From NCBI GenBank assembly GCA_905178155.1, contig CAJINV010000004.1, forward strand, positions 9,300,418 to 9,352,104: a stretch of 51,687 bases of DNA, given 5' to 3'. Origin of the DNA: Amoebophrya sp. A120 (taxonomy: Eukaryota > Protista > Dinoflagellata). Position 1 is the first letter of the stretch. Each line of letters starts with the position of its first letter. The notes beneath the pieces are model-generated. The model did no database searches. It was not told the origin of the DNA and saw only the letters and a program-made list of their open reading frames with translations. The translations under genes and the position numbers were made by a program. Shown in pieces: positions 1,421-51,392 of the stretch.

Positions 1421-4338
1421 ATGAAAATGGACGGACGCAAAGTTCCCGCGAGCAGCCCCGAGGGTGTCTCCTTCGGGAACAAGAAGATGTTGCTTTGTTC
1501 TCTGCTCCCGGTCGTTTCGGTCGTGCAGGGATCGCACATTATCTTCCACGGCCCGGCTGCACTGGAGCCGGAGTCGGAGCCGCAGCCGAATGTGTTTTTG
1601 AGTCCGCGGCCCGTGAGCGCCGCGGCCCGTGAGCAAGGCCGCGAGGCGACCTCGTCCGGGAGCGGGTGGTCGACCGGGAGTCTTATCAAATGCAAAAATG
1701 TGTGGGTCTGGCAGAGTGTAAACTTGTCATGCAGGTTTTTCATGATCCATGAGGTCTGGAATGCGAGACCTAGCGTGACAGAGTCTGTGAGGTCTCTGCC
1801 ATGCCTATCCTGCATGAGAAACTCCCTCCAAACTTGGTCGAAAGTGGACAGCTTTTGGCACTCATGCAGCACAGATCTCTGCATGATTCGGATTAATTTA
1901 GCATGACAAGTTGCAATCTTCCAGACCCAGACACTTTTGCAATCCATAAGTCTTGGCTTTCTGCAAGAGGAGTCCAAACCCTCCTCCGCGGCCGCGGTTG
2001 CAGTTCCCGTGCAGAGCACGAAACGGCGAAAGAATGTGTTCTATTACGCTGCCGGAGGGACGGAGCTCGCGGCGGCGTATGCTTCCGCGCGCTATCTGGC
2101 GCAGCAACGCGATGAAAACGGCGACCCGGTTTACAACGTGGTCTGCGGATTTAACTTTGGTCTCTCGATGATGCTGGTCGGCAGGCCGGGGGAGTGGCAT
2201 ATCGGGGAGGGTGACCCGGTAGAACTCGGGTGGTTGACCGAGAAAGAAGCCGAAGTCGACTGCAGCGCTGCAGCAGCTCGCGGCGGTGCTGAGGGTGCGA
2301 GAGGAGCCAGTGGAGACAGTGCGTCCCCGTCTCCTCGAGTTCATCCCTATAACAGGTGCGATGTTCCCATCGGACACTTACCCCTGGGCAGCGATGCTTT
2401 TTTGCAGGAGGAAGTGGGAAAAACCGAGCGCATCGCCTTGTCACAACCTCTGAATTCCGAACTGAAGCGGATGAAGGCGGCGGGTGTGCACCTGGCGCCG
2501 CATCGACTGTCCCTTCAATTCATCGCCAGAGACCAGTTGCGGAAGGGAGGAAAACCCGAGGAAAAGCCCGCGGAGATGTATGGCCAGCTTTTGGCCGGAA
2601 TCCGAGACGAGGCCGCTCTCGTTGCACACGCCAAACAGGCTTTGGGAGCTATGCCACCTAGTGGCGCGGAGGCAGCGGCATCTACGGGCGTCGACGAGGC
2701 AGCTGCACCGCTGACCGAGGCAGAAGCGGAGTATGTGTACGGGTACCCGAGCTACGCGCGGTACGTGAAAAACGTAATTTTTGAAGGAGAGGCTGTCGAC
2801 CTGGCTGTTGTGGACGTGATTGCGATGAATAACCGAGAGTTTGCGAAGCAGCTGGGTCTCGATTTTCGAACGACGATGTTGCGGGAACTGAGCCCGGCAG
2901 TTCTTGTGCAATGGATTGGGAATCCCGCGATGAGTCCGTACCCCACAATTAGCGGCCGCAAGTCGGAGGCACCGATACAACCGGACGACGCTCTTGTGAT
3001 CGACATGGCCCAGGTCCCCTCCGTGACAGCGACACCTTTTCCGCTCTTTTACAATTGGGCGAATGCGAATGCGAATGCGCCGCAGTCGATTGGAGACTTG
3101 CAAAAATCACTAGAGGCCAACGCAGAGCTGGAACACACCCGGGTCGGGGCAGCCCCCGGCTGCCGGTGGTCAAGGTGCACCTGCAATCGCACCGGCAGGA
3201 GGACGGAGGTTCACAGCCGTCGGCGGACTTCGGGCCCTACGCCCTGGTCATGCCCCACCCCGCCCGCGAAGCGAATGCCAGCACAGCGGGAAGCGCTCAC
3301 GTGACCAGCCTCAGCGAAAAACTGCTTGAAGGAGGGCGGTTTGACGCACTGATCTATGTGGGCTTCGGGACGCAGCCCAACTGGTTTTCGCGCGAAGGAG
3401 TTCGGTACCTGGCGAGGGAACTCGTCGGGGCGTCGGAGTCTGCGCTGGTCTACATGGTAAAGCCGAAGCTGATGCCGGTGGATTTCGATCCGGAAGCGGC
3501 TGTTTCGCCGCAAAAGTTTTTCGCGGGCCTGGAGGCGTCGTTTGGTGGATGGCTGATGTTTCACCCGGAAGAGGTGGCGCCCCAGCTGGAGATCTTTCAG
3601 ACTTTCGGTGACGGAAAATTCATGGTCGACCCCAAGGACGGCGGCGGAGAAAGGCCGCTGCAGGTGATCTTCGTGTCGCACGGTGGCGTGGGCTCGCTCG
3701 CGGAGGCCGCCGCGTTCCGACTGCCGCTCCTGTGCCTCCCCCTGCTCCAGGGGGACCAGCCCCCGAACTGCAGACAGGTGGCGCGTATGGCAACGGGGCG
3801 GGACTTGGGCAAGCTGTCTGCTGCGATGATTCTCCACAAGATGCTCAGCGGTCCGATTGCATCCGACGTCACCAATCTCGCGGGCCGCCATTTCGCCTAT
3901 TTTTCAACGCCGGGCTGCAAGACGGGCGGCGAAGATCGTACCGGGGAGCTGAAGTTCGAAGGAGTCGTCGCCGCTACGCGCGCAGAGCTTGGCAAGCTGC
4001 AAGGCTTTTACGAGTCGGCCGCGCAGTTCTCGCAGTCCGTGCGGGCGATGAAGCGTTGGGAAGAAGAGCTTCTGCCCGAGTTCGAGCGGGAGAGCGGGGT
4101 CCCGTGGCGCAAGCAGCTGGACATCCAAGGCGTGCTCCGCACGGAAGCGAAGGCGCTGCTTGCCGCGGACTCTGCCTACGCGCAAGGAATTCGCGGAGCA
4201 CTAGACACTTCGCAGGACCTCCTGTACCAAAACACGGTAAGCCGCGAAACGGGGGCGGGCCAGTTGCTCGAGTATTTCATGCAAAACGAGAAAGAGCACG
4301 GGGGATGGATGGTCGCGGACGGGGCGACGGAAGCCTAG
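1421..4338 (+). CDS. UDP-glycosyltransferase (GT1/UDPGT-like) with long N-terminal region; one introner and one apparent frameshift near 3150-3160
   Basis: ATG 1421; removing 1684-1953 joins WSTGSL-GFLQEE in frame. C-terminal ORF carries IYVGFGT and the UGT signature FVSHGGVGSLAEAAAFRLPLLCLPLLQGDQPPNC. Frames switch around GCAGCCCCCGGCTG. Confidence 0.7.
1684..1948. mobile_element. Introner-like TIR element, family A (subfamily A1, opposite orientation to the 7408 copy)
   Basis: TAT..ATA ends, TIR TGCAAAA(A/G)TGT(G/C)TGGGTCTGG, direct repeat AGTCT; 265+5 nt removal keeps frame. Confidence 0.92.
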
Positions 4339-4855
4339 CCACGCCGGTCGAGGGGCGCTCCTCCGGAGAACGCCGAGATCTTTTGCAGCAAACGCGCGCA
4401 GAAAGCGCACAAAGAAGCGACGAACTCAAAGATGACCATGGCAATATGATGTCGGATTTCCCGTATCTGTCTGCTATGGAAACTACTACTACTGTTATAA
4501 GATACAAGTCGTGTTTAATCTCAATAAACAGACCCTGCTATAATTAGAGCACACGAACAAAAACGAATAGGGCGCAACTATAGGGAAATACGAACAAAAC
4601 TAGAAGAGGAGATGGAAACTAGCTGGGTTTCTCTGAAGCCGGAAAGAACGCGAACAATTCGCACAGCTATGCGCGAACCGAGCGCAACACACAAAAACAG
4701 GGAAACTCCTATAGAGCGACGAAGTTACTTTTTTGCCATGGTAAAGCGAAAGCCGCATCATCCGCCTAGGTACGCGGAAGCGTTGTGGAGAAGCTACCGC
4801 AAGTAAACCTCTGAAAAAGTCATACGAAATTTACCTTCCTCTCTATTTTGGTCCG

Positions 4856-6621: not shown

Positions 6622-9600
6622 ATGACGGTGAGCAAACCTGAGAAGTCTGCCAAGGCAGACGGTGTGAAGAAGGTGAAAAAGGTCAAGAAAGTGAAGACGG
6701 CTACTGCGGAGCAACCAGCAGCGGCATCCACTGTGGCAGCTGCAGCACCTGTAGTGGCTGCAACGACAACATCAGAAGGCGCTGCTGTTGCGAAAAAGGC
6801 AAAGAAGACGAAGAAGGACAACAAAACTGGTGTAGCAAAGCCTACTACACCAGCTGCAGAAAAGAGTGAAGACTCCACAACAGTCGATGATCAGAATAAG
6901 AGTGCAGCTAGTGGAGCAGTTTCGTCCACGAGCACGAAAGTAGCTAGCACAAGTGCCGGATCTTCACCAGCGGAACCACAAACCATGGCAGCTTTCCTTC
7001 TGAAAAACCGCGTTGCGAATGCCCAGGACTTCCAACCGGTTCCGATGGACAACATTTCTGACATCAGTAATAAATCGAAGAAAGCTCTGAATGAGTATAA
7101 ATCCATCACCTCCCTCTTCGAGATCCAGGCCCGGGTGTTCGAGCACGCCGTGGCCGGAAAAGACGTGGTCGGGAAGGCCAAGACGGGCTGCGGAAAAACT
7201 CTGGCTTTTTGCCTACCCGTGGTCGAGCGGTTCGCAAAGTTGCTGGAGAGTCAAGACGGTGAATTCACAAAAGCAGTGTCGCGGAAGAAACCGCTGGTGA
7301 TTACCCTTGCTCCAACCCGGGAACTGGCAAAACAAATTATCCGGGACTTTGAAGTTCTGGGGAACGCGCACAATTTCTCGTCCGAGTGCTTGTACGGGGG
7401 TGTCCAGTATCAAATGTAAAAATAAATGTCTGGGTCTGGAACAAAGCAACTTGTCATGCTAAATCTGAATCATGAAAAAATCTGTGTTGCGTGATTACCA
7501 AAAGAAAAGCTGTCCACTTTTGACCTAATCGAGAGGCAGTCTCTCATGCAGGATAGGCATGATAGAACTCTCACAGAATCTCTCATGCTATGTCCTTCAT
7601 ACCAGACCTCATGGGTCATGGAAAACCTGCATGACAAGTCTGGCATTCTTCCAGACCCAGACATTTTTGCAGTTGATATCCAGTTCGGCCCGCAGTGCCA
7701 GGTGTTGCGGGAGGGGTATCAAGAAGAAAAATCCCCCCTCCCCATATCAAAACGAAACTTCTAATGCTGGATTTGCGTACACAAATCAGCCCTGTCTTGC
7801 AGTAGAGGACTGCAGGCCCGCATCAAGCCTGACTGGGAGAGGTTTTGGCCTAGGCGCTCAGCATGTCAAAAGTCCATGCTGCAGGCCGAACAGCATCACA
7901 AACCGCCGTTATAACGCGGGGGGCCTTCTGGGTTCGCCTTCTTGCAAGACAAACACGATTTGTGGCCACAAATCAGCATCGCAAATGTCCGAAAATATAC
8001 CTTTTCGGTATGGGGAGGGGGGATTTTTCCTTTTGATAAGGGAAGGCAGATCATCGTCGCGACCCCCGGCCGGTTGTTGGACCACATTCAACGGCAAACC
8101 ATCGACTTGAGCGAAGTCAGGTACTATGATCCACTTGAATGTTAATATTGCCAGGCTACTTTGAAGAGAAAATGAAAATGTCCATTAGTCGCTGCGACTG
8201 ACTCTTGCTGCAGTTGGTGCTCTTGCATGTTGACTGCGTTTTCAATTTCGTCCAAAATCAAATCGTAATCCTCGCAATTGCATGATAATCAATTCCCAAG
8301 CATGTTCAACTCGTCAATCCCTCTCAGGGCCCTCGTCCTCGACGAAGCCGATGAGATGCTTTCCATGGGTTTCCAGGAGGACGTCGATTCCGTCATCAAC
8401 GCGTTACCGCGGAAGGACGTCCAGAAGCTCCTGTTCTCCGCGACGCTCCCCCACTGGGTGATATGCAATACAAATTTCCCGTACATGTACTTACAAGATG
8501 CATCACAAATTTTACCAATGAATTTGGAGTGTGACCACACTTGTCATGCTAAACCAGGATCGAAGCCCAGTTTTGTCATGCAGAGACTGCATTTGTATGT
8601 GTACGGGAAATTTACTGTGGATAGGTGAACGACCTGGTGCAGAAAAAGATGACAGACCCGCAGTGGGTCGACATCGCGAGCAAGGACGACAACAGCACGA
8701 ACAAGAACATCAGCCACAAGTGCATCTTATGCATTGCAAATGTGTCTGGGTCTGGAAACTTGTGATGCTGGATGGCGTATCATGGGGAGGCCACTAGTGC
8801 TGGCTCAGCATGCCAAGTTTCTGAGCTTCTAGGTGTTGCCCACTCTGCGTGACAGACTGCGTCTCTGCATGACAGAAAAGTGGGGCTCTTGGGTAACGTG
8901 CATGACAGATTTAAGAGTCATACCGGGCAACCATGACAAACATGCACCCTTCCAGACCCAGACACTTTTGCATTTGATACATCTTCTGCCCGCCGCAGTT
9001 CAAAGCGGACACTTTAGGGGATTTTGTCAAGGTCCACGCGGGCGCGCTGTTTGGGAAAACCGTGATCTTTTGCGACAGCAAGAAGGAGGTCAACGAGTTA
9101 GCGCAGCACGAGAAATTGGTCCAACTCGGCGCGGGGGTGTTGCACGGCGACGTCCAGCAGAACCAACGCGAGGTCGTGATGGAGAATTTCCGCACGGGAA
9201 AGATTAAAGTTTTGGTCGCAACTGACGTTGCGGCCCGGGGTCTGGACGTGCCGTGTGTGGATTTGGTGATCAACACGCGGCCGCCGCAAGACGTGGAGTC
9301 CTACGTCCATCGATCCGGCCGAACCGGCCGCGCGGGGAACAGCGGGGTTTCGATCATCTTCTACAGCCGGTCGGATGAGTACATGATCCGGATTTTGAAG
9401 CGGAAACTCGGGATTGAAATGCAACGCGTCGGGCCGCCGCAACCGTTCGACATTGTGAAATCCGCGGCGAAGGACAGCACGCGGTTCTTGGATTCCATAT
9501 CAAATGCAAAAGTGTCTGGGTCTGGAAGGTTGGAACTTGTGATGCTATTTTTGGACTCTAAAAAAATCTGTATTGCATGAACAGCAAGAGGAGTCTAAAT

Positions 9601-10689
9601 TGTGCTACGCGGGGAGGGCGTTTGTCGTGCGGAGTAGGCATCAGGAAGCCCTCTAAAAATCTGTGATGCTAGGCCGTGCATTACAGACATCCTGTGTCAT
9701 GCAAAACATGCTTGACAAATTTCAGAATCTTCCAGACCCAGACATTTTTGCATTTGATATTCCATCCACCAGGACAACGTGGAGGCGTTTCTGGACCAGG
9801 CGAAGCAGATGATTGAGGAGCGCGGCGTATCCTGTGTAAAAACGTCCCCACCTCCCCATAGTTGTCATGCAAATCCGCCATGACAGGAAGATTTGTAATG
9901 ATCATCTCCATAAAAGGCATTTCGATTTCCGATTGTGTTTTCGCATTTGTAATGCTGTGAACAGGATGTGGATGAGACAGAGACTTTCTCATGCGGCTTC
10001 CCTTGCTAACCAGCACTACACTGCAGATGGAGACTTGTCATGCGCAACTCCTAAAACTTGGAGATTTGTGTTGCAGATTTACCAACTTGACTATGGGGTG
10101 GGGACGTTTTTGCTCAGGATACGGCGCGGAGCAGGCGCTAGCCGCGGCGATGGCGGGGTTGACGGGTTACACGAAGCGGGTGCAGGGAAGGAGTCTGTTG
10201 TCCTCGTTTCAAGACTGCACGTGCCTGAAACTCACCAGTAACAAGCCGATCGAAGCGACGTCGAAGGGGTTTTTCCTCCTCCGCCAATTTTTCGATAAGT
10301 CCTTGACCGAGGATAAGATCAAGGGGATGACGTTGTGCGCAGATAACTACTCCTGTATCTTCGACGTCCCTTCCGACCAGGTGGACGCCATGATGGCGAT
10401 CGTGCAGACACCAGGCGTGTTATGGGACGGGATTGAGATCACGATCCCGCGGGAGCTCCCTGAGTTGCAGGAGCGGGACGGAAACAGCTGGCAGAACGAC
10501 GAGCAGGCGCATAAAGATAGAAAGAAAATGCTGTGGGAAAGGAGAACCGGGAAAGGCGGCGGTGGCAAGGGCGGTGGTAAGGGCGGTGATCACGGCGGAA
10601 AAGGAAAAGGAGGCGGGAAGAAGGGCGGTTTTACCGGTAGAGGTGGCGGATCTGCTGGCGGAAAAGGACAGCGATCGGGACCGTATTGA
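6622..10689 (+). CDS. DDX21: DEAD-box RNA helicase, nucleolar DDX21/DDX50 (RH-II/Gu)-like, 755 aa after removing 6 introners and 1 GT-AG intron (8121-8327)
   Basis: Motifs [50 protein letters not shown]; GUCT-like region (RSLLSS...FDVP) and G/K-rich tail; 4068-1800=2268 nt, divisible by 3. Confidence 0.9.
7408..7678. mobile_element. Introner, family A (A1)
   Basis: TAT..ATA, DR TCCAG; joins GGVQ-FGPQ. Confidence 0.92.
7717..8038. mobile_element. Introner, family B
   Basis: TIR TATCAA..GAAAAATCCCCCCTCCCCATA; DR AGGGG/AGGGA; joins [14 protein letters not shown]. Confidence 0.9.
8462..8623. mobile_element. Introner, family C
   Basis: TIR TAT..AAATTTCCCGTACA; DR GGTGA; joins HWV-NDLV. Confidence 0.92.
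8728..8979. mobile_element. Introner, family A (A2)
   Basis: TAT..ATA, DR CATCT; joins HKCI-FCPP. Confidence 0.92.
9498..9759. mobile_element. Introner, family A (A3)
   Basis: TAT..ATA, DR TTCCA; joins FLDS-IHQD. Confidence 0.92.
9828..10121. mobile_element. Introner, family H
   Basis: TIR TATCCTG.G.AAAAACGTCCCCACC; DR CGGCG; joins EERG-AEQAL. Confidence 0.92.
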
Positions 10690-12449: not shown

Positions 12450-13847
12450 ATGGTGGTCGAACACCTGGAATTTGCGTCCAACGAGGAGTTAGGGATCACA
12501 AATATGTCTGAATCGGGAAGATTTCTAGATTTGTCATGCATATTTTCCATGAGCCATGATGTCTGTGATGCATGCCGTAGCATCGCAGATTTTTAGACGG
12601 CTTTGTGATACCTCTACCGCATGAGAAACGCCCTCTCCACGTAGGACAAACCCGACACCTCATCTTGCTGGTCATGCAATACATTTTTTTTTAGAATCCA
12701 CAGACAGCATCACAAGTTGTCACCCCCCAGACCTAGACATATTTGCATTTGATAGAAGTTGCAGAAATTTCTCGACAAGCACAAGATCGTCATCCTCGTT
12801 TTTTTATGGATTGCAAAAGTATCGTACTCGTATAAATGCATTACAAATTTCGACTTCCACCTCAGCATGAGAAAGAGAGTTTGCAATGCTGATTTACCTT
12901 AGGCAAAAGATTTGTAATGCATGACTGCAATACGAATACGTACGATACTTTTGCAGTGCATATTTCTCCGGTGATTGGTGCGGCCCCTGCCTGCGCATGG
13001 GCCCGGAGTTCGAGAGACACGCGAAGGAGCACGAAAATGCGATGTTTGTGATCCTCGACTGCGACGTATGCAATACAAATTCCCCGTACATGTACAAGAT
13101 GCATCACAAATTTCACGAATTTGGAGCGTAAAACTTGTCATGCTAAACTAGGATCGAAGCCAAGTTTTGTCATGCAGAAACCGCATTTGTACGCGTACGG
13201 GAAATTTACTGTGGATACGACACGTGTGCCGTGTGTGCGGAGGAGAACGACATCGACTGCATCCCGATATGGGGCTCTCAAACGTTACATTCTCAACTGT
13301 TACCTGAATTTGTAATGCAAGAACAGCAACAGTGAAAGTGGCAAGATAATTGCAGCTTTCGCATCACAGATTTTCCAGAGATTATCATGCTGTATAGCCC
13401 TTCGCGAATTTGTCATGCTAGAAGCGCCTTGATCAAGTAGAGGCTGATGGCAATTTTGCATGACAAATGTAAATGGTGTAACAGTTGAGAATGTAACAGT
13501 TGAGAGCGCCATACCCGACCTTCCTCGCGTACAAGCACGGAGAAGAATTCGACCGGTTCGAGGGGGCGTGCCAGAAGTCGCTGGAAAGGATGATCGAAAA
13601 GGTGTTTGCTGATGGAGCAGCAAGTAGTCGTCCTCGGGACGACCACGATGTCGCTTCGTCAACCGCAACGAATATTAAAACCCTGCTGACTTCTTCCACG
13701 GAGGACCACATCAAAGACGATGCGGTAGAGCACCACGGAAAGCAGGGCAGCACGGGAAAAAAGGACAAATCGGACGGACAAGAAAGAAAAGGCGCTATCG
13801 GTAACGAGGACCACGGGGCTGCAGTCCGGGGAAGCAAAGACAAGTAG
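12450..13847 (+). CDS. Thioredoxin with C-terminal extension, 185 aa, split by 4 introners
   Basis: Rebuilt sequence MVVEHLEFASNE(E/K)LQKFLDKHKIVILVFSGDWCGPCLRMGPEFERHAKEHENAMFVILDCD..CAEENDIDCIPTFLAYKHGEEFDRFEGA; WCGPC active site and cis-Pro IPTF; 1398-840=558 nt. Confidence 0.88.
12490..12754. mobile_element. Introner, family A (A3 reversed, degenerate left TIR starting TAG)
   Basis: DR GGAGT/GAAGT; 270-nt removal keeps frame. Confidence 0.85.
12805..12962. mobile_element. Introner, family E
   Basis: TIR TAT....TGCAAAAGTATCGTAC; DR TTTTT/TTTCT; joins LVF-SGDWCGPC. Confidence 0.88.
13067..13217. mobile_element. Introner, family C
   Basis: Very similar to the 8462 copy; DR CGACG/CGACA. 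Confidence 0.9.
13268..13513. mobile_element. Introner, family F
   Basis: TIR TATGG.GCTCTCAA..GTTACATTCTCAACTGTTAC; DR CCCGA; joins CIP-TFLAY. Confidence 0.92.
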
Positions 13848-14970: not shown

Positions 14971-16730
14971 ATGACCGTAAGAGCAGACTTCTATCCAGCA
15001 ACGGCGTCTACTACAACGTCAAGTGCAAGAACGCAGAAACCTTCGACATCAGCACTAACCGGGATTTCTACCTCCATGGAGGAAATCGCCGGTGAACAAC
15101 AACAAGGTCTTCCCGGGAATGTCCAAGCGGAACTACAACAGCAACCGCGACGGTTGTCTACCAACTCGACCTCCTCTGCTTCAACCAAGAAGCCTACGAC
15201 GCGTTCGTGGATCCCCCTTTCCTTCCGCGACGTGGCAGAGGACCGGGTTCTCAACGTCCTCACGTACAACATTCTGTCCGACGAGAAGGCGGTATGGAAG
15301 CGTCAGGTTTGAAATCGACAAAGTTGAGATGATTTGTCATGCATAAAATGCAAGGCATGAAGTGCCTGTCTTGCCGGGATGGCAAGTGAGGCAGATTGTG
15401 AGCCTATTTAGGGTTTGGGATAGAGCTGCTAAAGGAGCATGACAAAAGCAGTCTTCTGTGCCCAAGCAGCATGACAAAGTGGGGTCCGGTGGTCCGAAAA
15501 TTTGTCATGCGCCGCTTGGAAATTGGGCTTCCAACTGGTATCGATTTTATACATTACAAGTTATTTCAATCCTGACACCCCCATAAGCGGCGAAAGAAGA
15601 GTGGGCCACAAATGTTCCGCCCTTCCAGCACAGGAAGGGGATTATTGTCGAAACCATCGCGGCGAACGACTTGATCGCGTTGCAGGAGGTGGGACCTGCT
15701 GTGTTTTCCGAGCTGAAAAAACAATTGGACGAAAGTTACGACGGGGTTTTCTTCCAGCCCTCGATTCCGCCCTGCGGCGTCGCGGTGTTCGCACGGAAAT
15801 CGCGTTTGAAAATCGCCCGGTACGACGGGTTCCAAATCGAGGACAGCATGTGCTTACAATGCGAAATCCGGATGCTGGTAAACGGGAAGGTGAAGATGTC
15901 GAAGAAAAATCTGAACAACAAATTCGCCTGCGAAACTGTGCATTTTTTCGCGATCCATTTCTGTGGCGGAAAGCAACCGGGGGATGAGGAACGAAGGGCG
16001 AGGCACTTGAAATTGCTGCACGAAAACGCGATAGAGGGACTAATAACCGACCCGGCAGAAGGTGGTGGCGAAGGCAACAATAACTCGTTCTCGCCGAAGA
16101 ACATTATCGTCGCCTGCGACAGCAACAGCGAGCGGACCTTCGCGCCAGTGGAGGAACTCGAGCCGGTTTGGTACGGAGAAGTGAAATATGCATCGCAATA
16201 AAAGTATGGTACTAGTAGAAATAGCATATACAAATTTTTCCAGAAGGAAGAACGGAATTTGTAATGCTGAATGAGCTAAGGCACCAGATTTGCCATGCAT
16301 GACTGCAATTACTTATTACTACGAGTGCGATACTTTTGCACTGCATATTAAGAGGTTGTGGCTCGAGCCGGGGCTGTTTCAGGACGCGGTGTTGGATGCG
16401 AATTTGTTGTACACGACGAAAAAGATGCGAACCGAGGGAAAAATCACGCAGCGAGCGGTGGACTACATCTTTGTCAGCTGCAATAAAGCGGATAATTTGA
16501 CGGTCCACGGCGTGCTGGACGTGCCGAGGTATGTTGCAAGTAGTACGAAGAGGTCAACAATCGCGGAAAACTTGATGCCAAATGAAGAGTATGTGTCAGA
16601 CCATCTACCAGTAGTCTGCAAACTTTCTGTCGGCACAGGGGGGACTTCTGGTCGTGCGTCAGCGGAGTTTCACTTGAGAAAACACAGGGGATTTTTGACG
16701 TGTATCTTCGGCGTGAAAGATGAGGACTGA
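14971..16730 (+). CDS. Endonuclease/exonuclease/phosphatase (CCR4/nocturnin/PDE12-like) protein, 431 aa, 2 introners
   Basis: EEP motifs LTYNIL, IALQEV, IVACDSN, VDYIF, SDHLPV; 1760-464=1296 nt. Confidence 0.82.
15293..15585. mobile_element. Introner, family D
   Basis: TIR TATGG..G.GTCAGG.TTGAAAT; DR GGCGG/AGCGG; joins DEKA-AKEEW. Confidence 0.88.
16187..16347. mobile_element. Introner, family E (diverged)
   Basis: TAT..ATA; DR TGAAA/TTAAG (both read Val-Lys); joins EVK-RLWLEPG. Confidence 0.85.
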
Positions 16731-23436: not shown

Positions 23437-23595
23437 TATGGATTGCAAAAATGTCTGGGTCTGCAAGATTGTAACTTGTCATGCTAAATCCGAATCATGC
23501 AAAAATCTGTGTTGTATGAGTGCCAAAAGCTGTCCACTTTCAACCAAGTTGGGAGGAAGTTTCTCATGCAGGATCGATAGGCATGAGAGAGATCC
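23437..23595. mobile_element. Left half of a family A1 introner, truncated at rearrangement junction
   Basis: Matches the 7408 copy up to ..GATAGGCATGA, then breaks; no right TIR and no second AACCA. Confidence 0.8.
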
Positions 23596-23626
23596 TTTCC
23601 ATCTACGACGCCGGGTGTTCCTTCCA

Positions 23627-23788
23627 TTCCAAATCTGTCTGGCATGACAGCAAAAACCTGTCATGCGCAAATAGTACGTGAAAACGCCCCTTAAGGGACC
23701 CTACTATGCATCCCAAGCATGACAGACGCAATCATCTTGCATGTTGCGCATCACAAATTTACACTATACAACGTTTTTTTCTTGGATA
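23627..23788. mobile_element. Half introner of another family (J)
   Basis: Ends TTGGATA next to a minus-strand exon; contains GCATGACA/GCATCACAA motifs; partner TIR missing. Confidence 0.65.
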
Positions 23789-23862: not shown

Positions 23863-24124
23863 TATCAAATGTAAAAATGTCTGGGTCTGGAAGAATGCAA
23901 CTTGTGATGCTGCATTTGAATTCCAAAAAAATCTGTATTGCATGAGTACCAAAGAAAATGCAACTTTTGCTACGCTGACACGGCATTTGTCATGCGGGAT
24001 ACGCATCAAGAAGCCCTCAAAAAATCTGTATTGCTAGGGTATGCATCACAGACATCATGGCTCATGCAAAACGTGCATGAAAAGTGTCAGAATCTTCCAG
24101 ACCCAGACATTTTTACAGTTGATA
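23863..24124. mobile_element. Introner, family A (A3)
   Basis: TAT..ATA, DR AGAAG; minus-strand frame joins GHF-YEAIN. Confidence 0.9.
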
Positions 24125-31300: not shown

Positions 31301-34300
31301 TAGGCCGCGATCCAAGCAGGAAAGGCCGGGGAGCGCCTTGAGCAGGTGTGCGTAGCGCACCCCACACAGCCCATCTTTTAGAAACTGGGGACGCTTGTCG
31401 AAAGGGGGGGGGGAGGGGGGAGGTAGGTCGCCAGCAGGCCGCTGACCCCCCTTTCGACACGTCGAAAGGGGGTCCAGTTTTTGCACAGCCTCTTATACCT
31501 CTGGAGGTGACGATGACGATGTTGAAAAAATAGTACGTCGCTGATTATACTTATGCGTCTGCGTGATGTGTTGAAGCCCGTTCTCCTGATTTGCATGAAG
31601 TTGAAAAAAGAAATACGAGCAGAGCTACTAGCTATAGACTTCAACTCGGTGTTCGTGTTCGTATCACAGAAATCAAAATTTTATCACAGCCGCGGCCGCA
31701 GAGCCGGCTGCTCCGGCGTTAGCTGAAGGCGCTCCCACTGCTGCAGCCACAGCAGCTGCCAGCACCGGCGACCAAGTTGCTGACGAAGAACCCGCCCGCG
31801 ATCTGTACGACCCGCTCCACAAGAGATTTGACTCGCAGGAGATGCGAAAATTTTCCGAGATCGGCATTGGGGACGGAATTTTAGAACCGGAGGAGGGGGA
31901 GCAATTTGACGAGCTCGACTACGACCTCCAGGATGTCGACACCTACGCCCGCGAGGGTCTCGGCTCGCTCCTCGACGAGGTCCGCGGGCCGGGCGTTCAG
32001 AAGGAGTACAATTTCAATTTCGAATTCGAAGATGAGGAGCCGGAACGGGAGTTTTACGAATCTTCCGGCGAATCGTCGACCGATGAATCGGAGTTGGAAG
32101 CGGGGTTGCAGAGGTTAATGGGCGGCGACGGCGGACCGGTGCAGGAGCATGTGGAGGAGGAAGATCCGTTCACACAACTTGTCAAAGCCGGTGGGAAAAT
32201 CCCGCGGGACCGGATCTGGGAGTTGCTATCCCACTATTTCGAGGTCGCGGGCCTCGGAGATCCGCGCGACGAGTTGGAGCGGTTGCAAATGAGCATGGAC
32301 AGCACGATGAACCAATCGGTTAACTTTTTGACGAAGAATTGTCAGTCGTTAGCGGACCAAGTCGAAGCGATCGCGTCCAACTGGTTCGACGCCCCATACG
32401 AATCGGCCGAGGACATCAAGAACATGGGGCGAATCCGTGCCGCCGGCGGCGATGTGGAGAAGTACAAAAGAATGATGGCGAAGCGGAAGAAAGAGGAGAA
32501 AAAGACCGCAGCGGCCGACAAGTACCTCGGTGCACCGCATCTAGCGAAACAGCACGAGGTGCAAACGGGGCGGATCACGTATGAAAGCCTCAGGTTGGAA
32601 ATCCTCAAAGTGGAAATGATTTGTAATGCAAAAAAACGAATCCAGTTGAAGCGCCATTTCTAGTCGGCGCATAACAAATTTTCCGGGCACTCAAAGCATG
32701 TCTGTCATGCTAGGTAGGCAAAGGGGTGCCCTTCTCTCGTGCTAATCAGCAGCCCAATTCTGAACCCCTAGCAGGACAATGGTCGGTCTCCATTGTGTCC
32801 TATGCAATACAGTCTTTTTTGCCTTGCATTTCATGCATCACAAATTATTTCCACTTTGACGATTTCCATTCTGAGGCCTTCATATCACGGCGATCGTGAA
32901 CGGGCAGAAGAAGCACACGGAAAGGGTCGTTATCAAAACGAAAAATCCCCCCTCCCCATATCGAAAACGAAACTTGTGATGCGGGATTTGTGTACACAAA
33001 TCGGCTTCGTCTTGCAGTAGAGGACTGCAGACAGATACAAAGCCGGAGTAGGGGCGTTTTGGTGTAGGCGCTTAGGAAGGCAGGCATATCCTCCGTAGGC
33101 CCTACAGCATTACAAATCGCCTGCAGGGCGCAGCGGGGTTTTTGGTTTTGCCTGCTTGCAATACAGAGACGGTTTGTGGATGTGGTCTCCAATCAGCATC
33201 ACAAATTTTCCCCGTTTGGTTTAATGGGGAGGGGGGATTTTTCCTCGCAGTAGTCGTGAGTAAAAACTTCGCGGAGGCGGATGAAAGGATGTGGACTTTG
33301 GCGGAAGCGTTGTGCGATCTACTCGTGCAGGTGAAGCGCAAAGGTGCGGACGGCCGGGCGAAGGCGCGAGAGGTTTTGGGTGGTGGCGAATCGTTTTTAT
33401 CCCCCATGCGGAAGAACTTGCAGTTACAATTGGAGATGGACCCGATGCAACTGCACCCGGGCGCGACCTTCTACTACCGCGCGAGCCCCTCTAGCAGTCG
33501 AGGGCTTGGTAGTCCGAAGAACGCGCACTTGCTGAAGAAAAAGGAATTGCTGGACAGAGTGGCAGATCAAGCGGCGGCCGCGACAAGTCCGGAGAGTTCC
33601 GCGCCGCCGAGTCCGAAGCGGAGGTTATCACCCGAGGACATAATTTTCTTGTCTCTGAGACAGCGTGTGATTCCCAGATCGGAGCGCGAGATTGTGATCA
33701 ATGTCCGGCTCGAACCTCCGGAGAAGGGCACGGTGCGGCCGGCGCCGGACGAGCCGCTGTGGCTGCCCAAATCGCCGGCGAAATCGCCGGAAAAGTCGGC
33801 AAGTGGAACGGCAAGTGTGGCGCAGAGTCCAGCGGGGAAGCCATTGAGTCTCCAGTCCCTTGGCAAAACGGCATCCACCGTGAAATTCATGACTGGTGGG
33901 AAACCCTTCGCGTTCGGCGCGTCACCGACCGCGCCGGCGACCGGGGTGCAGGTGGCCACAGGAACAGCGGCAAATGGTGCAGCAAATACTGCCGACGTTG
34001 CTCCCCCGGCGCCGCGACCTGGCTCTCCGAAGGGAATTCTCGCCTCGCCCAGCGCAAAATCACCGAAGCACCAGAACAGCAGCACCGGAAGTCCGTCAAA
34101 CCGCGGCACTCCAAGTGGTCATCATCATCATCATCACGGCAACCAGCAGCACCAAGAGGCTGTCGGCGCCTCTTACCTTCGCGCCTTGCGTCGCATCGCT
34201 GACGAAGCGACCAACCCCCCGCCGAAGACGAAATTTAGGCAGCAGAGGACGAGGAACAACAATGGGGACTTGGGTTTGTCCGCGGCACAACAATTAACCG

Positions 34301-37300
34301 TGTTGGACCGCTTCCACCGCGGGGAGAAGCAGTTTGTGAAGCTGAAAGACGCGCACTTCTACCCGAGGAACGACCATACGGAGAAGAAGCCGACGATTGC
34401 GGCGATGCTGGCCGGGCAAACATCAACGTACAACTCCGCGACGCAACAACAGTTCAGTGCCACAGGGCGGTCGAGCTCGCAATTCTTGCACACGGCGAGT
34501 ACCACGGTTGCGGACGGGAGGTCGATGTTAACGGCTACTTCTGCAGATAACTTCACCAACTCGCTGATGTCGACTACCGCGATCTGGAACAACCAACAGA
34601 GATCTGTCGACGGAACGAATACAGATGCAGCAGCTCAGAATAACAGCCTGCACCAACAGTCTCAGTCTTCCTTCCGATCGACGACTTTGTCTTCTTCCAT
34701 TCTGCAACCGCAAATGAACAACTCGATGAGCATGACGAATTTCAGCTTCTACGACGAATCCATGCTGTCCGAAAATGATCGGGGTTTATTCGATGACTTA
34801 GAAGAGCAAGAGGAGGACAGTGACGAGGAGAACGAAGTTGCTGCACAGCTGGAAAAGCGGGTGATTGAAAAGCGGAAACGACGAAATTTAGTCAGGAAGC
34901 CAAACTACTTCACGAAACAATCCCGCTGCTTCGAGAACATGCGATCAGCGAGGTCGGCGACACTTTCTTACCCGATCTTCTCCGAGCCGGTCTTATTCGT
35001 CCCCGAGCCCCTGCGTGACAACGTGCAATTGAAAGACGCCCAGATAAGGCGCAGGTTGAGGAAGTACCAAACCGACGGCGCAGCGTTTGGCTTAACAAAG
35101 TTCATGAAGCCGAGGGAAAAGGATAAAAAGTCCGTGAAGGGAATTATGTTCGGACTACGAGTCTCCTCGTTAGTGAACGTCGCAGCAGCGAAGTTCAAGG
35201 CGAAAGGGTTGCTAGACAACACGTACAAGACGGGGCAAGGCGTGTCGCAGTATTTGGATAAGGTGGCGCAGGAAAGGATGAAATTAGAGAAGGAGAAGCA
35301 GGGGAAGCAGGAAAAGCAGGGCAAACCGTCGAAATATGGAACTGTCAGGTTTGAAATCGTCAAAGTTGAAATAGTTTGCCATGCATAAAATGCAGCGCAG
35401 AAAGTGCCTGTCTTGCAGAGTAGGCAAGGGGGGCAGATTGTGTGCCTGTTTCGGGGTAGAAATAGAGCTGCTAAAGTAGCATGGCAAAAGGCGTCTTCCT
35501 TACCCAAACAGCATGACAGACTGGATTTCGGCTCTACCCAAATTTGTCATGCGTCACTTGGCAACTGGGTTGCAACTTTCATCCATTTTCTGCATTACAA
35601 GTTATTCCAACTTTGTCGATTTCAATCCTGACACATCCATACGAAAGCGGACGTGTTTAAAAAGGAAACGAAGATGGCACAGAGCAGAAGGGAGTTACTG
35701 TTATGCATTGCAAAAGTATCGTAGTAGTATAAATTGCATCACAAATTTTGGCAAGAAGGAAATTTGTATATGCTGTTTTGCATTAGGAAAAACATTTCAA
35801 TTTGTCATGCATATTTGCAATTAGTACGAGTACGATACTTTTGCACAGGATCACTGTCGATTTTCGACAATTTCCGGCGGCACAGCAGACGGCTGAACTA
35901 CGAAATGTCGTTGCTCACACCCGACTACTTATTCGACAACGTGTTCCTTTACAGCAATTTCTCCTTCCCGATGCTGCGAAGGAAGGCGATCAAGCAATTC
36001 GAGCGGGAGATGAAATTACGCGTGTACATGCGGAAACCAAGTGAATTGCTGCTGATCCAGAAGAAACTCTCGAGTGGTTTCCGAAGAATGAAGGAAGACC
36101 AGTTGTCGATCGATCACCGACGGATGTTGCGCGACATCGGGCGGATGGGAGACTACAAAGAGTACCGGCAGAGGATATGCAGTGCAAAAGTATCGTACTC
36201 GTATAAATGCATTACAAATTTCCTCAGCATGAGAAAAAAATTTGTAATGCTGATTTACTTTAAGGAAAAGATGCATGATTGCAATGCGAGTGCGATACTT
36301 TTGCACAGGATAGAGGAAGCCGCGGAATGAGTTACCGCTAGATCCGGAAGAGCTCGCGATGTATATGGCGTTCTCAAATGTTACATTCTGCTCAACTGTT
36401 ACATGATTTGTCATGCAAAATGAGCATCAACGTCCACACAGTGAAGCTGCCTCGCATGACAAATTTTGGAAGGGCTAAAGCTAAACAGCATGGGAATCTG
36501 TGCCGAATTTGTAATGCAAGAGTTGCAAGACCCCGATCCGGCCTTGTTTCCTGCCTGTTGCCATTCTTGCATCACAAATTCATGTAACAGTTGAGAATGT
36601 AACAATTGAGAATCCCATAATGTACGAGCAGCAATTTGAGGACGCGCCGTTGATCGATGCCCACCCGAAAATGCCGGACGAGAAGGTCTTCTTCGTGAAA
36701 TCTCGGGCGCAAGCACCCGACTATGGAAGCGTGGTCAGGATTGAAATCATCAGAGTTGGAATAGTTTGTGATGCATAAAATGCAACCAGCAAAATACCTG
36801 TCTTGCCGACTAGGCAAGGGAGGCAGATTGTAAGCCTGTTGAGGGGTAGCAATAGAGCTGCTAAAGTAGCATGAAAAACGGCGCCTCTTTACCCGAACAG
36901 CATTACAAACTGGATTTCGGCTTTACCCAAATTTGTCATGCGCCACTTGCAAACTAGGCGCCAACTGGTATCCAATTTATGCATGACAATATCATTTCAA
37001 GAACTTTGTTGATTTCAATCCTGACACACCCATACCGACCCGTCAGCGGATAAAAACAGCGGGCAGTTGGGGAAACGGCCGGAAAGGATGAAGGACAAAG
37101 AACCCAAAATCCGGTACATTTGGCGGGACAAACCGGACGTGCCGTTGGTGGTTCCGCGGATCGCGAAGGCGGAAATTGAGGAAAAACAGGCGAAACAGGC
37201 GATTGACTACGCGAAGGTGAAGCCGGAGGCGAAGAAGGTGTTGCGGATTCTACACGAGGATATGGTCCCGACCTACTATAAGAAGGAGAAGGAAGCCGAG

Positions 37301-40300
37301 AAAGCGATCATCAAATCCTTGTCCTACCGCGTGATGCGGTCGAAATCCGGATACGACGACGCGTTTTTGTCCGACTTAGACGAGGAGGAGGAAGAGGAGG
37401 AGGACGAGGTGTTCGATGAGGATATGGCTGTGTGAATAAATCACGTTTCTTGCAATGTACGTCAATTTGCCATGCAAGGGTGCTGCCCAGAGAAACAGAT
37501 ACAGGTTCAGGTCAGGAGACTTTGTGTCTACTACTATGTATTGTGCATGACAACTTGATAATTGATAATTGTCCACGTGTAGTACTAGTTGGTGATTTGT
37601 TCACCCCCGATATCCGAAGAGCAGATGCGGTTAGCAGCAGAGGCGGAACAGAAGGCCAAGATATGGGGTTCTCAAACGTTACATTCCCAACTGTTACATG
37701 GATTTGTCATGCGAAAGCAGCATCATCATCCTCACGATCAAGCTGCTCCGCATGACAAATTTGCGAAAAGCCAAACCGCGCCTAAATCTGTGCCAAATCT
37801 GTCATGCAAAAGGCGCAATCTTCCCCCTTTCAGTTTTGCCATTCTTGCATCAGAATACTCATGTAACAGTTGAGAGTGTAACAGTTAAGAACGCCATGCA
37901 AGATGATCGAGAAGTATGGTGCGGACGTGGCGGAGAAATTGCTGAAGGCCCAGGAGATTGAAGTGGTGGAATTCCTGCCGCCGATCGACCCGCGGGAGGA
38001 AACGGATGTTTTCTACTCGAAGTTAACCGCCCACGCCCGGAAAATGGAGGAGGATATGACAGTGCACAACTCCCCCTCCCCCTCATTTGTCATGCAAAAT
38101 CTTAAATCCAGTCGCTCTCGCTGCCTTGTGGCACTGTTTGCATGACAAGTTCTGGCAGTGGCTGCCCAAATAGCACTACACTCCAGTGTCAATTTGTCAT
38201 GCAAAACCGGCATTCTTGCTGATGCTTGTGTTGCCGTTCATGCTATACAAATGAAGGGGAGGGGGAGTTGTGCAAGCTCATAGAGGACGGGGAAGTGTCC
38301 AAATCGAACTGGAAGTACCGGCTGTCCGCGAGTCAGATGATGTATCCTGTGCAAAAGTATCGTACTCGTACTAATTGCAAATATGCATGACAAATGTTTT
38401 TCCGAAGGGAAAACAGCATTACAACACCCTTCTGGCCAAAATTTGTGATGCAATTTATACTAGTACGATGCTTTAGCTTTTGCAATCCATATGATGCGGA
38501 AGAAGGCAAAACTGGTCTCCGCTTTAAACATATCAGATGCAAAAACGCCTGGGTCTGGAAGGATGCGAACTTGTGATGCATAGTACTTGGATCACACAAA
38601 AATCTGTCATGCTTAAACAGGAACGGGAGCTCCTTCTCCTGTCGCCGAAAGAAGGCGTGGAAACCGCCTCAAAACCTTTGATGCTAGGCCTTGCATGGCA
38701 CACCTTCCGTGTCAAGCACACACAGCATCACAAAACTCAGCAATCTTCCAGACCCAGTCATTTTCGCAATGCATAAAACAAAGCGATGTCTACGGACGAC
38801 GGGGAGGAGGCCTACGAAGACGAGGAGACTTATGGGAGTGTCAAGATTGAAATCGTCAAAGTTGAAATTATAGTTTCTCATGCATAAAACCGATACCAGT
38901 CGGAAGCCCACTTCTCAAGCGGCGCATGACAAATTTTCCGAGCACCGGAATCCAATTTGTCATGCTGTTTGGGCAAATAAGACTGCTTTTGTCATGCTAC
39001 TTTAGCAACTCTATTTCAAACCCTAAACAGTCTCACAGTCGGCCTCACTTGCCATCCCGGCAAGAGAGGCACTTCATGCCTTGCATTTTATGCATGACAA
39101 ACCATTTCAACTTTATCGATTTCAATCCTGACGCTTCCATAAGATCGCGGCCGCCAAAGACGCCCTGCTACCCGGAGATCTTGCCGGCAAAGAGTTGAAA
39201 GCGGAGGACAGGAAAGCGGCGAAGGAGCAGCAGAAAGCGGCGGGGGGTCGGGGTGGGCGGATGAAGGTGCCGAAGTTTGTCCGGGAGGGGTTCTTATCAA
39301 GTGCAAAAATGTCTGGGTCTGAGAGAATGCATGTTTGTCATGCTTGTCTGGCATGACACTTAAATCTGTCATGCACGCTACCCAAGAGCTCCATTTTTCT
39401 GTGATGCAGAAACGCAGTTTGTCATGCAGAATAGGCAACACCTACAAGCTCAGAAACTTGTCATGCTGAGCCAGCACTTGTGGCCTCATCATGAGACGCC
39501 ACCCAGCATCACAAGTTTCCAGACATCCAGGGATTTTTACATTTTATAGTTCTACCGTTTTTTGGCCAAGGAGATGGGCGTCGCGAGTTACCGGATTCCC
39601 CGGGACAACTCGGCGAAGATGGTGAAATTGATGTGGAACGTCTACGAGGAATCGTACGCTAGAACGTTGTGGTATCCACAGTAAATTTCCCGTACCGCCG
39701 TACACATGCGGTCTCTGCATGACAAAACTTGGCTTCGATCCTAGTCTAGCATGACAAGTTTTACGCTTCAAATTGGTGAAATTTGTGATGCATCTTGTAC
39801 ATGTGCGGGAAACTTGTATTGCATATGTGGCAGCAGGGCGTGGAAAAATTCGGACCGAAAATCATCGCGACCGCGGTTTCGAACCCGGCGGAGGCGGAGC
39901 ATTTCAAGAAGATCATGATGAAGTATGGGCTCGCGCAGGGGAAGAAACTGCGGGTCGCGATGAGCTCCGCGGGCGTGTTCCAAGACGTCGCGTCCCCGGC
40001 CGTGAAAGCGAAACAGGAGGAAGCTCTCAAAAACGCCACGGAGGACGATGACACGGAGCACAAGGGGGCGGATTTGTCCTTCCGGATGGATTTGCTCAAG
40101 GGCGCGCGGAAAGCGACAAATGAAATCGCCGAGGCGCAGGCGGTATGCACTGCAAAAGTATCGTATTCGTACTAATTGCAGTTATGCATTTACAAACGTA
40201 GGCTGTTAAGGTAAATCCGCATTACAAATTTATTTCGTAATGCTGAGCTCATTTGTATTGCAATTTATACTAGTACGATACTTTTGCAGTTCATAGGCGG

Positions 40301-40359
40301 AACAAACCGCGGCGGCCGAAGCGGCAGATGAGGCTGGGGACGGGGCGGAAGAGCAGTAG
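28309..40359 (+). CDS. Large uncharacterised protein, ~2190 aa (helical/TPR-like N-terminus, A/E-rich and S/T/Q-rich linkers), 17 introners plus 1 GT-AG intron (30159-31689)
   Basis: Every junction restores an open frame; 12051-5478=6573 nt = 2191 codons, ending GDGAEEQ* at TAG 40357-40359. Confidence 0.8.
28914..29065. mobile_element. Introner, family E (right end ATG)
   Basis: DR CACAA; joins LH-KLSMQ. Confidence 0.9.
30169..31492. mobile_element. Non-autonomous DNA transposon, PIF/Harbinger-like, inside a canonical intron
   Basis: ~45-bp TIR GAGGCTGTGCAA.AA.TGGACCCCCTTTCGAC..GTCGAAAGGGGGG; TTA TSD at 30166-30168 and 31493-31495; three internal GGGCGCGCGCAGCGCGCCC repeats; no transposase seen. 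Confidence 0.85.
32580..32884. mobile_element. Introner, family D variant
   Basis: TIR TATGAA.GCCTCAG..TGGAAATC.TCAAAGTGGAAAT; DR TCACG. Confidence 0.92.
32931..33252. mobile_element. Introner, family B (right end GTA)
   Basis: 322 bp like the 7717 copy; DR GTCGT. Confidence 0.9.
35335..35641. mobile_element. Introner, family D
   Basis: TAT..ATA, DR CGAAA. Confidence 0.92.
35702..35852. mobile_element. Introner, family E (right end ATC)
   Basis: DR ACTGT; joins RELL-SIFDN. Confidence 0.9.
36176..36312. mobile_element. Introner, family E
   Basis: TAT..ATA, DR GAGGA. Confidence 0.92.
36364..36619. mobile_element. Introner, family F
   Basis: TAT..ATA, DR ATGTA. Confidence 0.92.
36722..37034. 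mobile_element. Introner, family D
   Basis: TAT..ATA, DR CCGAC. Confidence 0.92.
37423..37612. mobile_element. Old introner, family I, diverged direct repeat
   Basis: TIR TAT.G...GTGAA(T/C)AAATCAC; flanks GAGGA/TCCGA; 195-nt removal keeps frame. Confidence 0.75.
37662..37898. mobile_element. Introner, family F (right end ATG)
   Basis: DR CAAGA; joins KAK-MIEKY. Confidence 0.9.
38055..38282. mobile_element. Introner, family G
   Basis: TIR TATGA...TGCACAACTCCCCCTCCCC.TCATTTGT; DR GAGGA. Confidence 0.92.
38343..38491. mobile_element. Introner, family E
   Basis: TAT..ATA, DR TGATG. Confidence 0.92.
38531..38775. mobile_element. Introner, family A variant
   Basis: TAT..ATA, DR AAACA. Confidence 0.9.
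38831..39141. mobile_element. Introner, family D (same orientation as 20737)
   Basis: TAT..ATA, DR AGACT/AGATC; 316-nt removal restores frame. Confidence 0.88.
39295..39548. mobile_element. Introner, family A (A2, reverse of 8728)
   Basis: TAT..ATA, DR GTTCT. Confidence 0.9.
39673..39825. mobile_element. Introner, family C (reverse of 8462/13067)
   Basis: TAT..ATA, DR TGTGG. Confidence 0.92.
40144..40295. mobile_element. Introner, family E
   Basis: TAT..ATA, DR GGCGG. Confidence 0.92.
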
Positions 40360-41624
40360 TTTAGTACTTCTGTGAAGGTGGGAGCAACAAGCAGACCATC
40401 AATTTTTCGGTAAAAAACCGCCTGACTGCAAATTTTAATGTGATCGAAGTCCGTCTAATGAAATGACAATGCTTTACGCACCATCAAGCCACGAGCGTGT
40501 CGTGCGCTGATGTTTTATCAATCTCATCCTACTAGTAGTGGCAGGATAACTTTTATGGACTTGCAAATAATGTCTTTCAGCAGGCTCTAATACAGGATAC
40601 AGTTGTTATTTCAATTTCATACAGTTTATATATAATCTTTGTTTCATATTCATCGACGTATTATACCATCGTGAATCAGATAGGACGCAGAAAGCTTTTG
40701 CCATCGTGATCGTTTTGTAGACTTCGACTATGCACACGTAAGTACAGCAAGATGTTGCGAACTCAGACCGACTGTTGATTGATCCTTACCGTATTTCCAA
40801 GAACAAGTTTCGAGATTCTGTTCCAGATTGCCAATTGTTTCAATTTACTTCGCATCTATGTTTCAGTCTATTATTTTTCTACTTTACACTTACAGGAGCA
40901 GCGTTTGTTTGAAAGTTTTACAACTAAATTTGTGTTGTGGGGTTAGCTCGTAGGAGAGTTTTGTTTCTAGTTCAAAAATTCAAGTTTGACACTTGTATCA
41001 GGCACTTTGAATTGTTGTACCATCGACTTGTGTTGTTTCAAATGTACACTAATCTCCAGTAATGAAGACCGAGCGACTGCAGGAGCAATGCGGCTATGAC
41101 AGTAGTTGACCACGAAATTTTCTGTATACCAATACTTCTGAAAACCAAAAACATAGATTGCTGCCACTTCTGCTTTTATGGAACTTATCGGAGGTGGTGC
41201 CCTGCTCTGGATGTTGATCTAACCGTGTTTTATTCTTCTCTTGGTAGCCGCAGCCGCAGCTAGCTGCAGGATGATCACGTTTTTTCGTTTCCGATCAAGG
41301 CAGATCCACATTGCACGCACGTACGGTCAACAAGATCATGTTGTGTGCGATCACAAGGGGGTTACCAGGTCATGTGCTTCAGCAGGAGTCTCAGCAGGCC
41401 GCGTGTGAGTAGCTTCCATTCCAGTACCGTGTCTGTGCCTTCAGACTATGATTGAACTTGCTCGGAGGGCATGAACACGATAAGCACAGGAGTTCTCGTC
41501 GGCGCTTTCAATTTACTTTACGAAACCATACTGGAACAAACTGTGTCGTGATAGACCCATATCAAGAGTTTTTGACATTTTCCTCCCACGATAACTACCT
41601 GCTCCTTCGGATAATTTATAAAAG

Positions 41625-51355: not shown

Positions 51356-51392
51356 TATGCAATGCAAAAGTATCGTACTCGTAGTAATTGCA
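51356..51392. mobile_element. Left TIR of a family E introner followed by unrelated sequence
   Basis: TATGCAATGCAAAAGTATCGTACTCGTAGTAATTGCA, left flank TAGTA; no right TIR in the remaining 295 bp although family E copies are 137-161 bp. Confidence 0.8.

Follow-up and report, generated by a model that had tools for sequence, protein, structure and literature searches.

In Amoebophrya sp. A120, Farhat et al. 2021 (PMC7789003) described RNA-validated introner elements of about 240 nt, which are bounded by TAT-initiated inverted repeats and resemble miniature inverted-repeat transposable elements (MITEs). Their account gives the flanking direct repeats (DRs) as 3-5 nt long (5 bp in the legend of Fig. 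S19), calls the intron border unknown and reports that no transposase was found. Here, we analyzed one 51,687-nt stretch of this genome (contig CAJINV010000004.1, positions 9,300,418 to 9,352,104 of the forward strand), referred to as the window, which holds 35 complete elements of this kind. The elements in the window share with the published ones the organism, an opening TAT with seven variable bases and then an A run behind it, and the inverted and direct repeats. They differ from the published account in that the DRs are 5 bp long and flush with the termini, and in that the cut can be mapped to one register, which likely lies one nucleotide ahead of TAT and four beyond ATA. Both the elements and their removal are known for A120 from that paper, and this register may already underlie its remark on "four nucleotides upstream" and its Table S4. 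Our literature search turned up no paper in which the cut register is mapped or the mechanism settled; the figures of Farhat et al. (Fig. 3 and Figs S19-S25) may show part of it.

Among other described systems, the nonconventional introns of euglenids are reported to share a MITE-like origin, paired ends, target-site-like repeats and the lack of GT-AG (PMC11282704; PMC11170887). They carry CAG/CTG a few bases inside their ends and leave as circles (PMC11282704), whereas the window elements have TAT/ATA ends and a 4/1 register (four bases of the upstream repeat and one of the downstream repeat kept). The introns of Fritillaria borealis are likewise transposon-derived, with terminal inverted repeats (TIRs) and a target duplication, and are described as being removed by an adapted spliceosome (PMC13326754; PMC11282704). 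According to these sources, Fritillaria has preferred termini (AG-AC, AG-AT) and retains U1, while in A120 we see no preference at +1 or -1/-2 and U1 is reported as not found. A different Amoebophrya is described with mostly GT-AG introns and with U1 present (10.1101/2024.09.05.611473). Internal eliminated sequences (IESs) of ciliates are also transposon-derived inserts that interrupt open reading frames (ORFs) and leave one repeat copy behind. However, IESs leave DNA at a fixed short repeat, which is TA in Paramecium, whereas the window elements stay in DNA and are flanked by arbitrary 5-bp repeats. A Mesodinium preprint takes up the conversion of introns to IESs for ciliates only (10.64898/2026.07.09.736142).

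Scanning the window for TAT..ATA arms and end look-alikes yielded 34 complete elements, and gene modelling added the 35th (37423-37612). The elements are 137-322 nt long and form 10 families by full-length BLAST, eight multi-copy and two singletons, with six of the eight multi-copy families found both along and against the direction of the gene. A perfect 5-bp DR lies flush with the termini of 26 elements, an imperfect one flanks eight (Table 1) and none is found at 21100. No perfect DR of 4 or of 6-10 bp was found for the 34 elements listed before 37423 was added. With four partial pieces, these scans and BLAST comparisons confirm the counts of an earlier note made from the sequence alone (35 complete and 4 partial elements, about 10 families, DR counts of 26/8/1). 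TAT stands at 33 of the 35 5' ends, and A occupies element positions 11, 12 and 13 in 24, 25 and 32 elements, which fits TAT, seven variable bases and an A run. Complementarity between the two arms extends over about 30 nt and includes a variable stretch at positions 4-7. Every family carries the subterminal motif TGTVATGC, or the complement of it; 35/35 elements have it, at a density of 13 per kb inside elements against 0.09 per kb outside. Complementarity is only 38-75% at arm positions 4-7 and 95-98% at positions 1-3 and 11-13, which amounts to a terminal stem of 3 bp followed by an internal loop and a long stem.

A pattern scan of one public assembly gave 155 loci (L001-L155; 482 kb) with the same families, their copies being up to 94% identical to those in the window. 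These loci contain 309 further copies, 238 of which have a perfect 5-bp DR. Filtering left 306 scorable copies, 182 past the orientation filter and 174 with at least three of five DR bases matching; these 174, together with 33 elements of the window (all except 21100 and 24906), form the set of 207 oriented elements used below.

Removal was followed in contigs of one sample (X1-X4), which we took, as a guess, to be RNA; it should be considered that contigs drop rare variants. These contigs behave as spliced RNA, because the ordinary GT-AG intron at 8121-8327 is skipped in them. In X1-X4, the complete table of 11 joints for 7300-14000 shows all ten elements skipped as element plus 5 nt, with no alternative joint among the 11 rows. 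Contig joins in X1 also span elements 15293 and 16187, so that 12 of 12 resolved elements are skipped exactly. Two raw-read RNA runs, X8 and X9, contributed only 3 and 2 reads. A further run, X5, we read as DNA. Its intergenic DNA is evenly covered at a depth of 30-57, element bins reach 3,000-140,000 against about 30, and at 11 junctions, four of them with at least 31 letters on both sides, its contigs continue from exon into element at single-copy depth (22-31). Element-free joints in X5 were judged from 15 of 1306 joint rows, and rare element-free alleles could remain. Removal of the elements is thus most simply placed at the RNA level.

The reading frames agree with these joints. Inside four ORFs lie 29 elements, and each ORF is complete once its elements plus 5 nt are removed: a DDX21-like gene (755 aa, 6 elements), a thioredoxin-like gene (185 aa, 4 elements), an 'EEP' gene (430 aa) and a 2190-aa gene (17 elements). 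Retention of any single one of the 29 truncates its ORF, and removal of element 1684 restores a long ORF as well. The earlier note had counted 34 restored sites; these 30 are clear, while 20737 and three minus-strand elements are merely locally in frame, at truncated or rearranged loci. Frame restoration is expected of any insertion with target duplication and alone is no proof of splicing. The window exons are 100% identical to A120 proteins: the DDX21 model equals protein P0002 and is colinear with the orthologue of strain A25 at all seven junctions, and residues 434-2190 of the 2190-aa model agree with P0001 at every one of 1757 residues, across 16 element junctions. Protein identity, the published introners and the RNA joints together bear out the suggestion that these are Amoebophrya-type introners removed without GT-AG. 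Pfam finds DEAD, Helicase_C and GUCT in the DDX21-like product and matches Thioredoxin on a piece of 31 aa, at E 8e-5 and slightly short of the curated threshold; two exons of the 'EEP' gene gave no Pfam match.

Where the DR is perfect, the position of the cut is ambiguous, and it can be placed only at imperfect repeats. We define k as the number of upstream-repeat bases kept in the exon. The RNA joints give k at most 4 (7717, 13067), at least 2 (12490), at least 4 (12805), at least 1 (15293) and 2-4 (16187), and the annotated protein P0001 gives at least 3 (37423) and at least 4 (38831). Two further imperfect sites in the public loci were chosen in advance and both fit k=4: the Ala in the A120 Rab protein P0077 sets k to at least 4 for L040, and the SEGG of a 94%-identical homologue sets it to at most 4 for L004. 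The annotated A120 proteins are the product of a transcript-guided pipeline and thus indirect evidence. The only value common to all ten imperfect repeats (6 from RNA, 3 from annotated proteins, 1 from a close homologue) is k=4. Its likelihood ratio over random cuts is 16 for the six RNA sites and 93 for eight sites, and the Bayes factor for a fixed register is 2.6 and 16, respectively. Codon scores in the 174 oriented copies point the same way: the codon read with the upstream base scores better at 8 of 9 mismatches of DR position 4 and at 8 of 10 of position 2, while positions 1, 3 and 5 are uninformative (5/7, 5/3 and 2/2). Since window genes served to train the codon model, its check on the window is in-sample. 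A cut at one fixed register is therefore likely. A cut at k=4 gives an intron with N-T-A-T at its start and A-T-A-N-N-N-N at its end, so that T occupies +2 and A occupies +3, the places that they have in an ordinary GTA. At this register, phase-0 introns make up 91 of 174 (52%), where a symmetric target preference predicts 44%, and the excess is mostly expected from that preference.

Across six registers, GT-AG is possible in only 1 of 34 elements (chance 0.038 per element) and G[TCA]-AG in 5 of 34 (chance 0.104 per element). Among the oriented public copies, GT-AG can be read at any register in 12 of 174, so that canonical GT/GC..AG ends do not describe them. Both GT-AG and G[TCA]-AG are at chance level. 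The statement of the earlier note that most elements offer no GT/GC/GA..AG pair at any register overlooks that the real register begins N-T-A. Both verified ordinary introns in the window begin GTA. No base preference was seen at +1, -1 or -2 in the 174 oriented copies. The first T is changed in 0 of 207 oriented elements and its mirror, the last A, in 6 (p=0.03, uncorrected); this asymmetry is suggestive only.

We lean, by a modest degree, towards removal by a spliceosome with relaxed end recognition, which would read U at +2 and have its 3' cut set by position; this view is drawn from the sequences and from analogy. With the same sequence at both ends, an element inserted in either orientation would yield an intron N-U-A-U ... 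A-U-A-N-N-N-N. To such a spliceosome, the U at +2, mostly with A at +3, would look like the GUA of ordinary host donors; G at +1 and AG would be dispensable; and distance from the element end would fix the position of the 3' cut, with the long hairpin helping but not strictly dictating it. Table S4 of Farhat et al. (PMC7789003) lists the main non-canonical donors as all N-T in A120 and all TT in A25, and the A25 repeats are said to begin TTA. The same paper reports most spliceosome proteins, as well as U2, U4, U5 and U6, in A120. A precedent is the Fritillaria spliceosome, which is described as removing transposon-derived non-GT/AG introns (PMC13326754; PMC11282704).

Several points weigh against the fixed register and its reading by a spliceosome. 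No lariat or branch point was observed, in data unable to reveal either. Even with random cutting, a common register for the six RNA sites would be expected in 25% of cases, the bound of k at least 4 depends on one RNA site and on annotations, and a single sample is the source of all RNA contigs. The asymmetry of T at +2 was one of five positions tested, most changes of the last A (ATA>ATG) still keep a U-G pair, and A at +3 is not asymmetric (2 vs 2 changes). The motifs in Table S4 may reflect aligner preference, and Farhat et al. report U1 as not found in A120 (PMC7789003). In yeast, G at +1 and AG are structurally needed (10.1101/212811); as the two pair with each other there, their joint loss would be coherent. 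A depletion of C at intron +1, seen in the window (2/35), was not replicated in the larger set (29 seen, 34.6 expected). The subterminal GCATBACA was rejected as a branch point since it is no more conserved at the 3' end (15 vs 8 mismatches), for which reason the motif is more likely a DNA-binding repeat.

A possible but distinctly less probable explanation is a non-spliceosomal route, in which an endonuclease or end-binding protein would act on the paired TAT/ATA ends, cut at the 4/1 register and hand over to a ligase, releasing a circular or linear RNA. A cleavage-and-ligation route has been proposed for euglenid nonconventional introns (PMC11170887; PMC12621601), and a review describes these as leaving as circles (PMC11282704). 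The lack of a G+1, AG or branch consensus and the roughly equal tolerance of both orientations would suit such a route, as would the report that U1 was not found in A120 (PMC7789003). The ends are also predicted to pair in 34/35 window elements and 170/174 other copies, although such pairing is expected for any TIR element. Arm mismatches show no excess of G-U over A-C (53/53 in the window; 236 vs 224 in the larger set), and sense and antisense folding energies do not differ (p=0.86), so that neither a G-U excess nor a sense-strand bias speaks for an RNA structure under selection for removal. Element 12490, with about 0.1 predicted end pairs and a decayed stem, is nonetheless removed exactly in two runs (X2, X4). 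Finally, the register places T at +2 just as GT does, in two strains with unrelated repeats. The proposal of the earlier note that removal is structure-guided is thus supported only in part, by the predicted pairing but not by the mismatch and folding comparisons or by element 12490; the hairpin may help removal, as an aid rather than an established requirement.

It is unlikely that the cut, whether spliceosomal or other, varies inside the 5-bp repeat, with k=4 merely the commonest position. Farhat et al. call the splice sites variable relative to the hairpin (PMC7789003), the Bayes factor from the six RNA sites is low, and minority forms would be hidden in contigs. All ten informative sites agree on k=4, however, and variable cutting at imperfect repeats would yield mixed proteins. 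Less probable still is programmed, IES-like excision from DNA, which would leave element-free genes in some life stage and which had been offered as one of two routes. The anatomy does resemble that of transposon-derived IESs, and X5 is one DNA-like run, judged from the joint rows given above. Yet X5 holds the elements at single-copy depth across its 11 exon-element junctions, and the cut polarity follows gene direction though the families insert both ways. To our knowledge, no split between germline and soma nuclei is known in Amoebophrya. Retention of the elements in mRNA, or use of nearby GT-AG sites giving pseudogenes or different proteins, which the earlier note had named as the outcome that would overturn it, could apply to 21100 and to the rearranged region 23400-25200, in which removal yields no long ORF and no RNA joint was seen, and RNA runs do contain element-bearing contigs from other loci, but with transcripts of 12 of 12 resolved elements lacking them, no alternative joints listed and a DDX21 product colinear with its orthologues, it is already refuted for the tested genes and has next to no probability overall.

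As for their origin, the elements present MITE features, i.e., TIRs, a fixed-length target duplication, short length and high copy number. They are non-coding and MITE-like, and from their anatomy we infer that a transposase inserted them, because of the 5-bp duplications, the two orientations and the shared subterminal TGTVATGC repeat, a likely binding site. No coding copy of the window families was found in the 482 kb searched, and a TIR pattern search of viral contigs gave 0 matches. The longest DR-bounded copy without inner elements is a 1104-nt copy of family G (L020:505-1608) with a perfect DR and a unique interior; the four scanned of its 14 listed ORFs gave no Pfam match. Gozashti et al. 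2025 (PMC12130899) describe family 38 of A120 and related TIR elements with integrase-like ORFs. These share the genome and the TIR-bounded form with the window families, beside which they are set by description only, and could be the source of the mobilising enzyme. In the window, the GT-AG intron 30159-31689 also contains a 1.3-kb element (30160-31495) whose inverted repeats, about 48 nt long, are of another kind. The left end of this element falls on the intron donor, and no ORF in it exceeds 193 aa.

The features are collected in Table 1. In their surroundings, the gene at 1421-4340 shows an apparent frame change at about 3100-3200 after removal of element 1684. About four tandem copies of a unit of some 208 nt lie upstream of the DDX21-like gene (4780-5610), and a 61-nt duplication (11181-11241 and 12208-12268) lies upstream of the thioredoxin-like gene. 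The region 23290-25200 is rearranged, with three partial elements and a 31-nt duplication (23596-23626 = 24815-24843); its minus-strand exons abut an apparent plus-strand gene from about 25200, and X1 and X5 contain paralogous contigs. From 41600 to 51350, long genes have GT-AG-like introns only and no elements, next to the gene with 17 of them, so that insertion looks very uneven.

Table 1. Elements, genes and control intron in the window (k, upstream-repeat bases kept in the exon; P0001, annotated A120 protein).
Feature	Position	Strand	Remarks
Element A	1684..1948	+	DR AGTCT, perfect; removal restores ORF starting at 1421
DDX21-like helicase gene, 755 aa	6622..10689	+	After removal of 6 elements and one GT-AG intron
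Element A	7408..7678	+	DR TCCAG; RNA joint 7402>7679 in X1-X4
Element B	7717..8038	+	DR AGGGG/AGGGA; RNA joint 7711>8039, slide 4; k at most 4
Ordinary GT-AG intron	8121..8327	+	Control; skipped in runs
Element C	8462..8623	+	DR GGTGA; RNA joint; sole element permitting GT-AG
Element A2	8728..8979	+	DR CATCT; RNA joint
Element A	9498..9759	+	DR TTCCA; RNA joint
Element D	9828..10121	+	DR CGGCG; RNA joint
Thioredoxin-like gene (WCGPC), 185 aa	12450..13847 (end approximate)	+	After removal of 4 elements
Element A, decayed left arm (TAG..)	12490..12754	+	DR GGAGT/GAAGT; RNA joint 12486>12757 in X2, X4; k at least 2
Element E	12805..12962	+	DR TTTTT/TTTCT; RNA joint 12803>12967 in X1, X4; k at least 4
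Element C	13067..13217	+	DR CGACG/CGACA; RNA joint 13061>13218 in X1, X2, X4; k at most 4
Element F	13268..13513	+	DR CCCGA; RNA joint
Element G	15293..15585	+	DR GGCGG/AGCGG; X1 contig pieces join 15288>15587; k at least 1
Element E	16187..16347	+	DR TGAAA/TTAAG; X1 pieces join 16183>16350; RNA is chimera TGAAG; k 2-4
Element G	20737..21053	+	DR GAGCA; within truncated gene; no RNA joint seen
Element E	21100..21248	+	No DR; no long ORF on removal
Partial element, left end only	23437..23592	.	
Partial element, right part	23627..23788 (start approximate, by eye)	.	
Element A	23863..24124	-	DR AGAAG; in minus-strand gene fragment
Element D	24223..24501	-	DR CCCAG
Partial element, right end lost	24564..24797 (end approximate)	.	
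Element A2, TGT..ATA	24906..25160	-	DR GTACA; gene strand uncertain
2190-aa ORF	28309..40360	+	After removal of 17 elements and GT-AG intron 30159-31689
Element E, TAT..ATG	28914..29065	+	DR CACAA
Element G	32580..32884	+	DR TCACG; P0001 junction
Element B, TAT..GTA	32931..33252	+	DR GTCGT; P0001 junction
Element G	35335..35641	+	DR CGAAA; P0001 junction
Element E, TAT..ATC	35702..35852	+	DR ACTGT; P0001 junction
Element E	36176..36312	+	DR GAGGA; P0001 junction
Element F	36364..36619	+	DR ATGTA; P0001 junction
Element G	36722..37034	+	DR CCGAC; P0001 junction
Singleton element	37423..37612	+	DR GAGGA/TCCGA; annotated protein gives k at least 3
Element F, TAT..ATG	37662..37898	+	DR CAAGA; P0001 junction
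Element I	38055..38282	+	DR GAGGA; P0001 junction
Element E	38343..38491	+	DR TGATG; P0001 junction
Element A	38531..38775	+	DR AAACA; P0001 junction
Element G	38831..39141	+	DR AGACT/AGATC; annotated protein has Thr, k at least 4
Element A2	39295..39548	+	DR GTTCT; P0001 junction
Element C	39673..39825	+	DR TGTGG; P0001 junction
Element E	40144..40295	+	DR GGCGG; P0001 junction
Partial element E, left end only	51356..51392	.	

More than half of Amoebophrya introns are removed without GT-AG, and a fixed register adds a new detail and a useful refinement to this known phenomenon. It points to specific tests, namely the position of the lariat or circle junction, the identity of intron +1 and minigene mutations that block removal, and it corrects gene models at imperfect repeats. 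We give an even chance to a ruler-type mode of splicing, in which any TAT..ATA transposon in any 5-bp target would be removed without a scar by cutting one base upstream of TAT and four downstream of ATA, with U at +2 as the sole fixed intron base and with no need for G at +1, AG, a branch consensus or an intact terminal stem. If true, this would be an undescribed way of choosing splice sites, carried out by a remodelled, U1-less spliceosome or by a separate enzyme, and it would account for the tolerance of tens of thousands of insertions.

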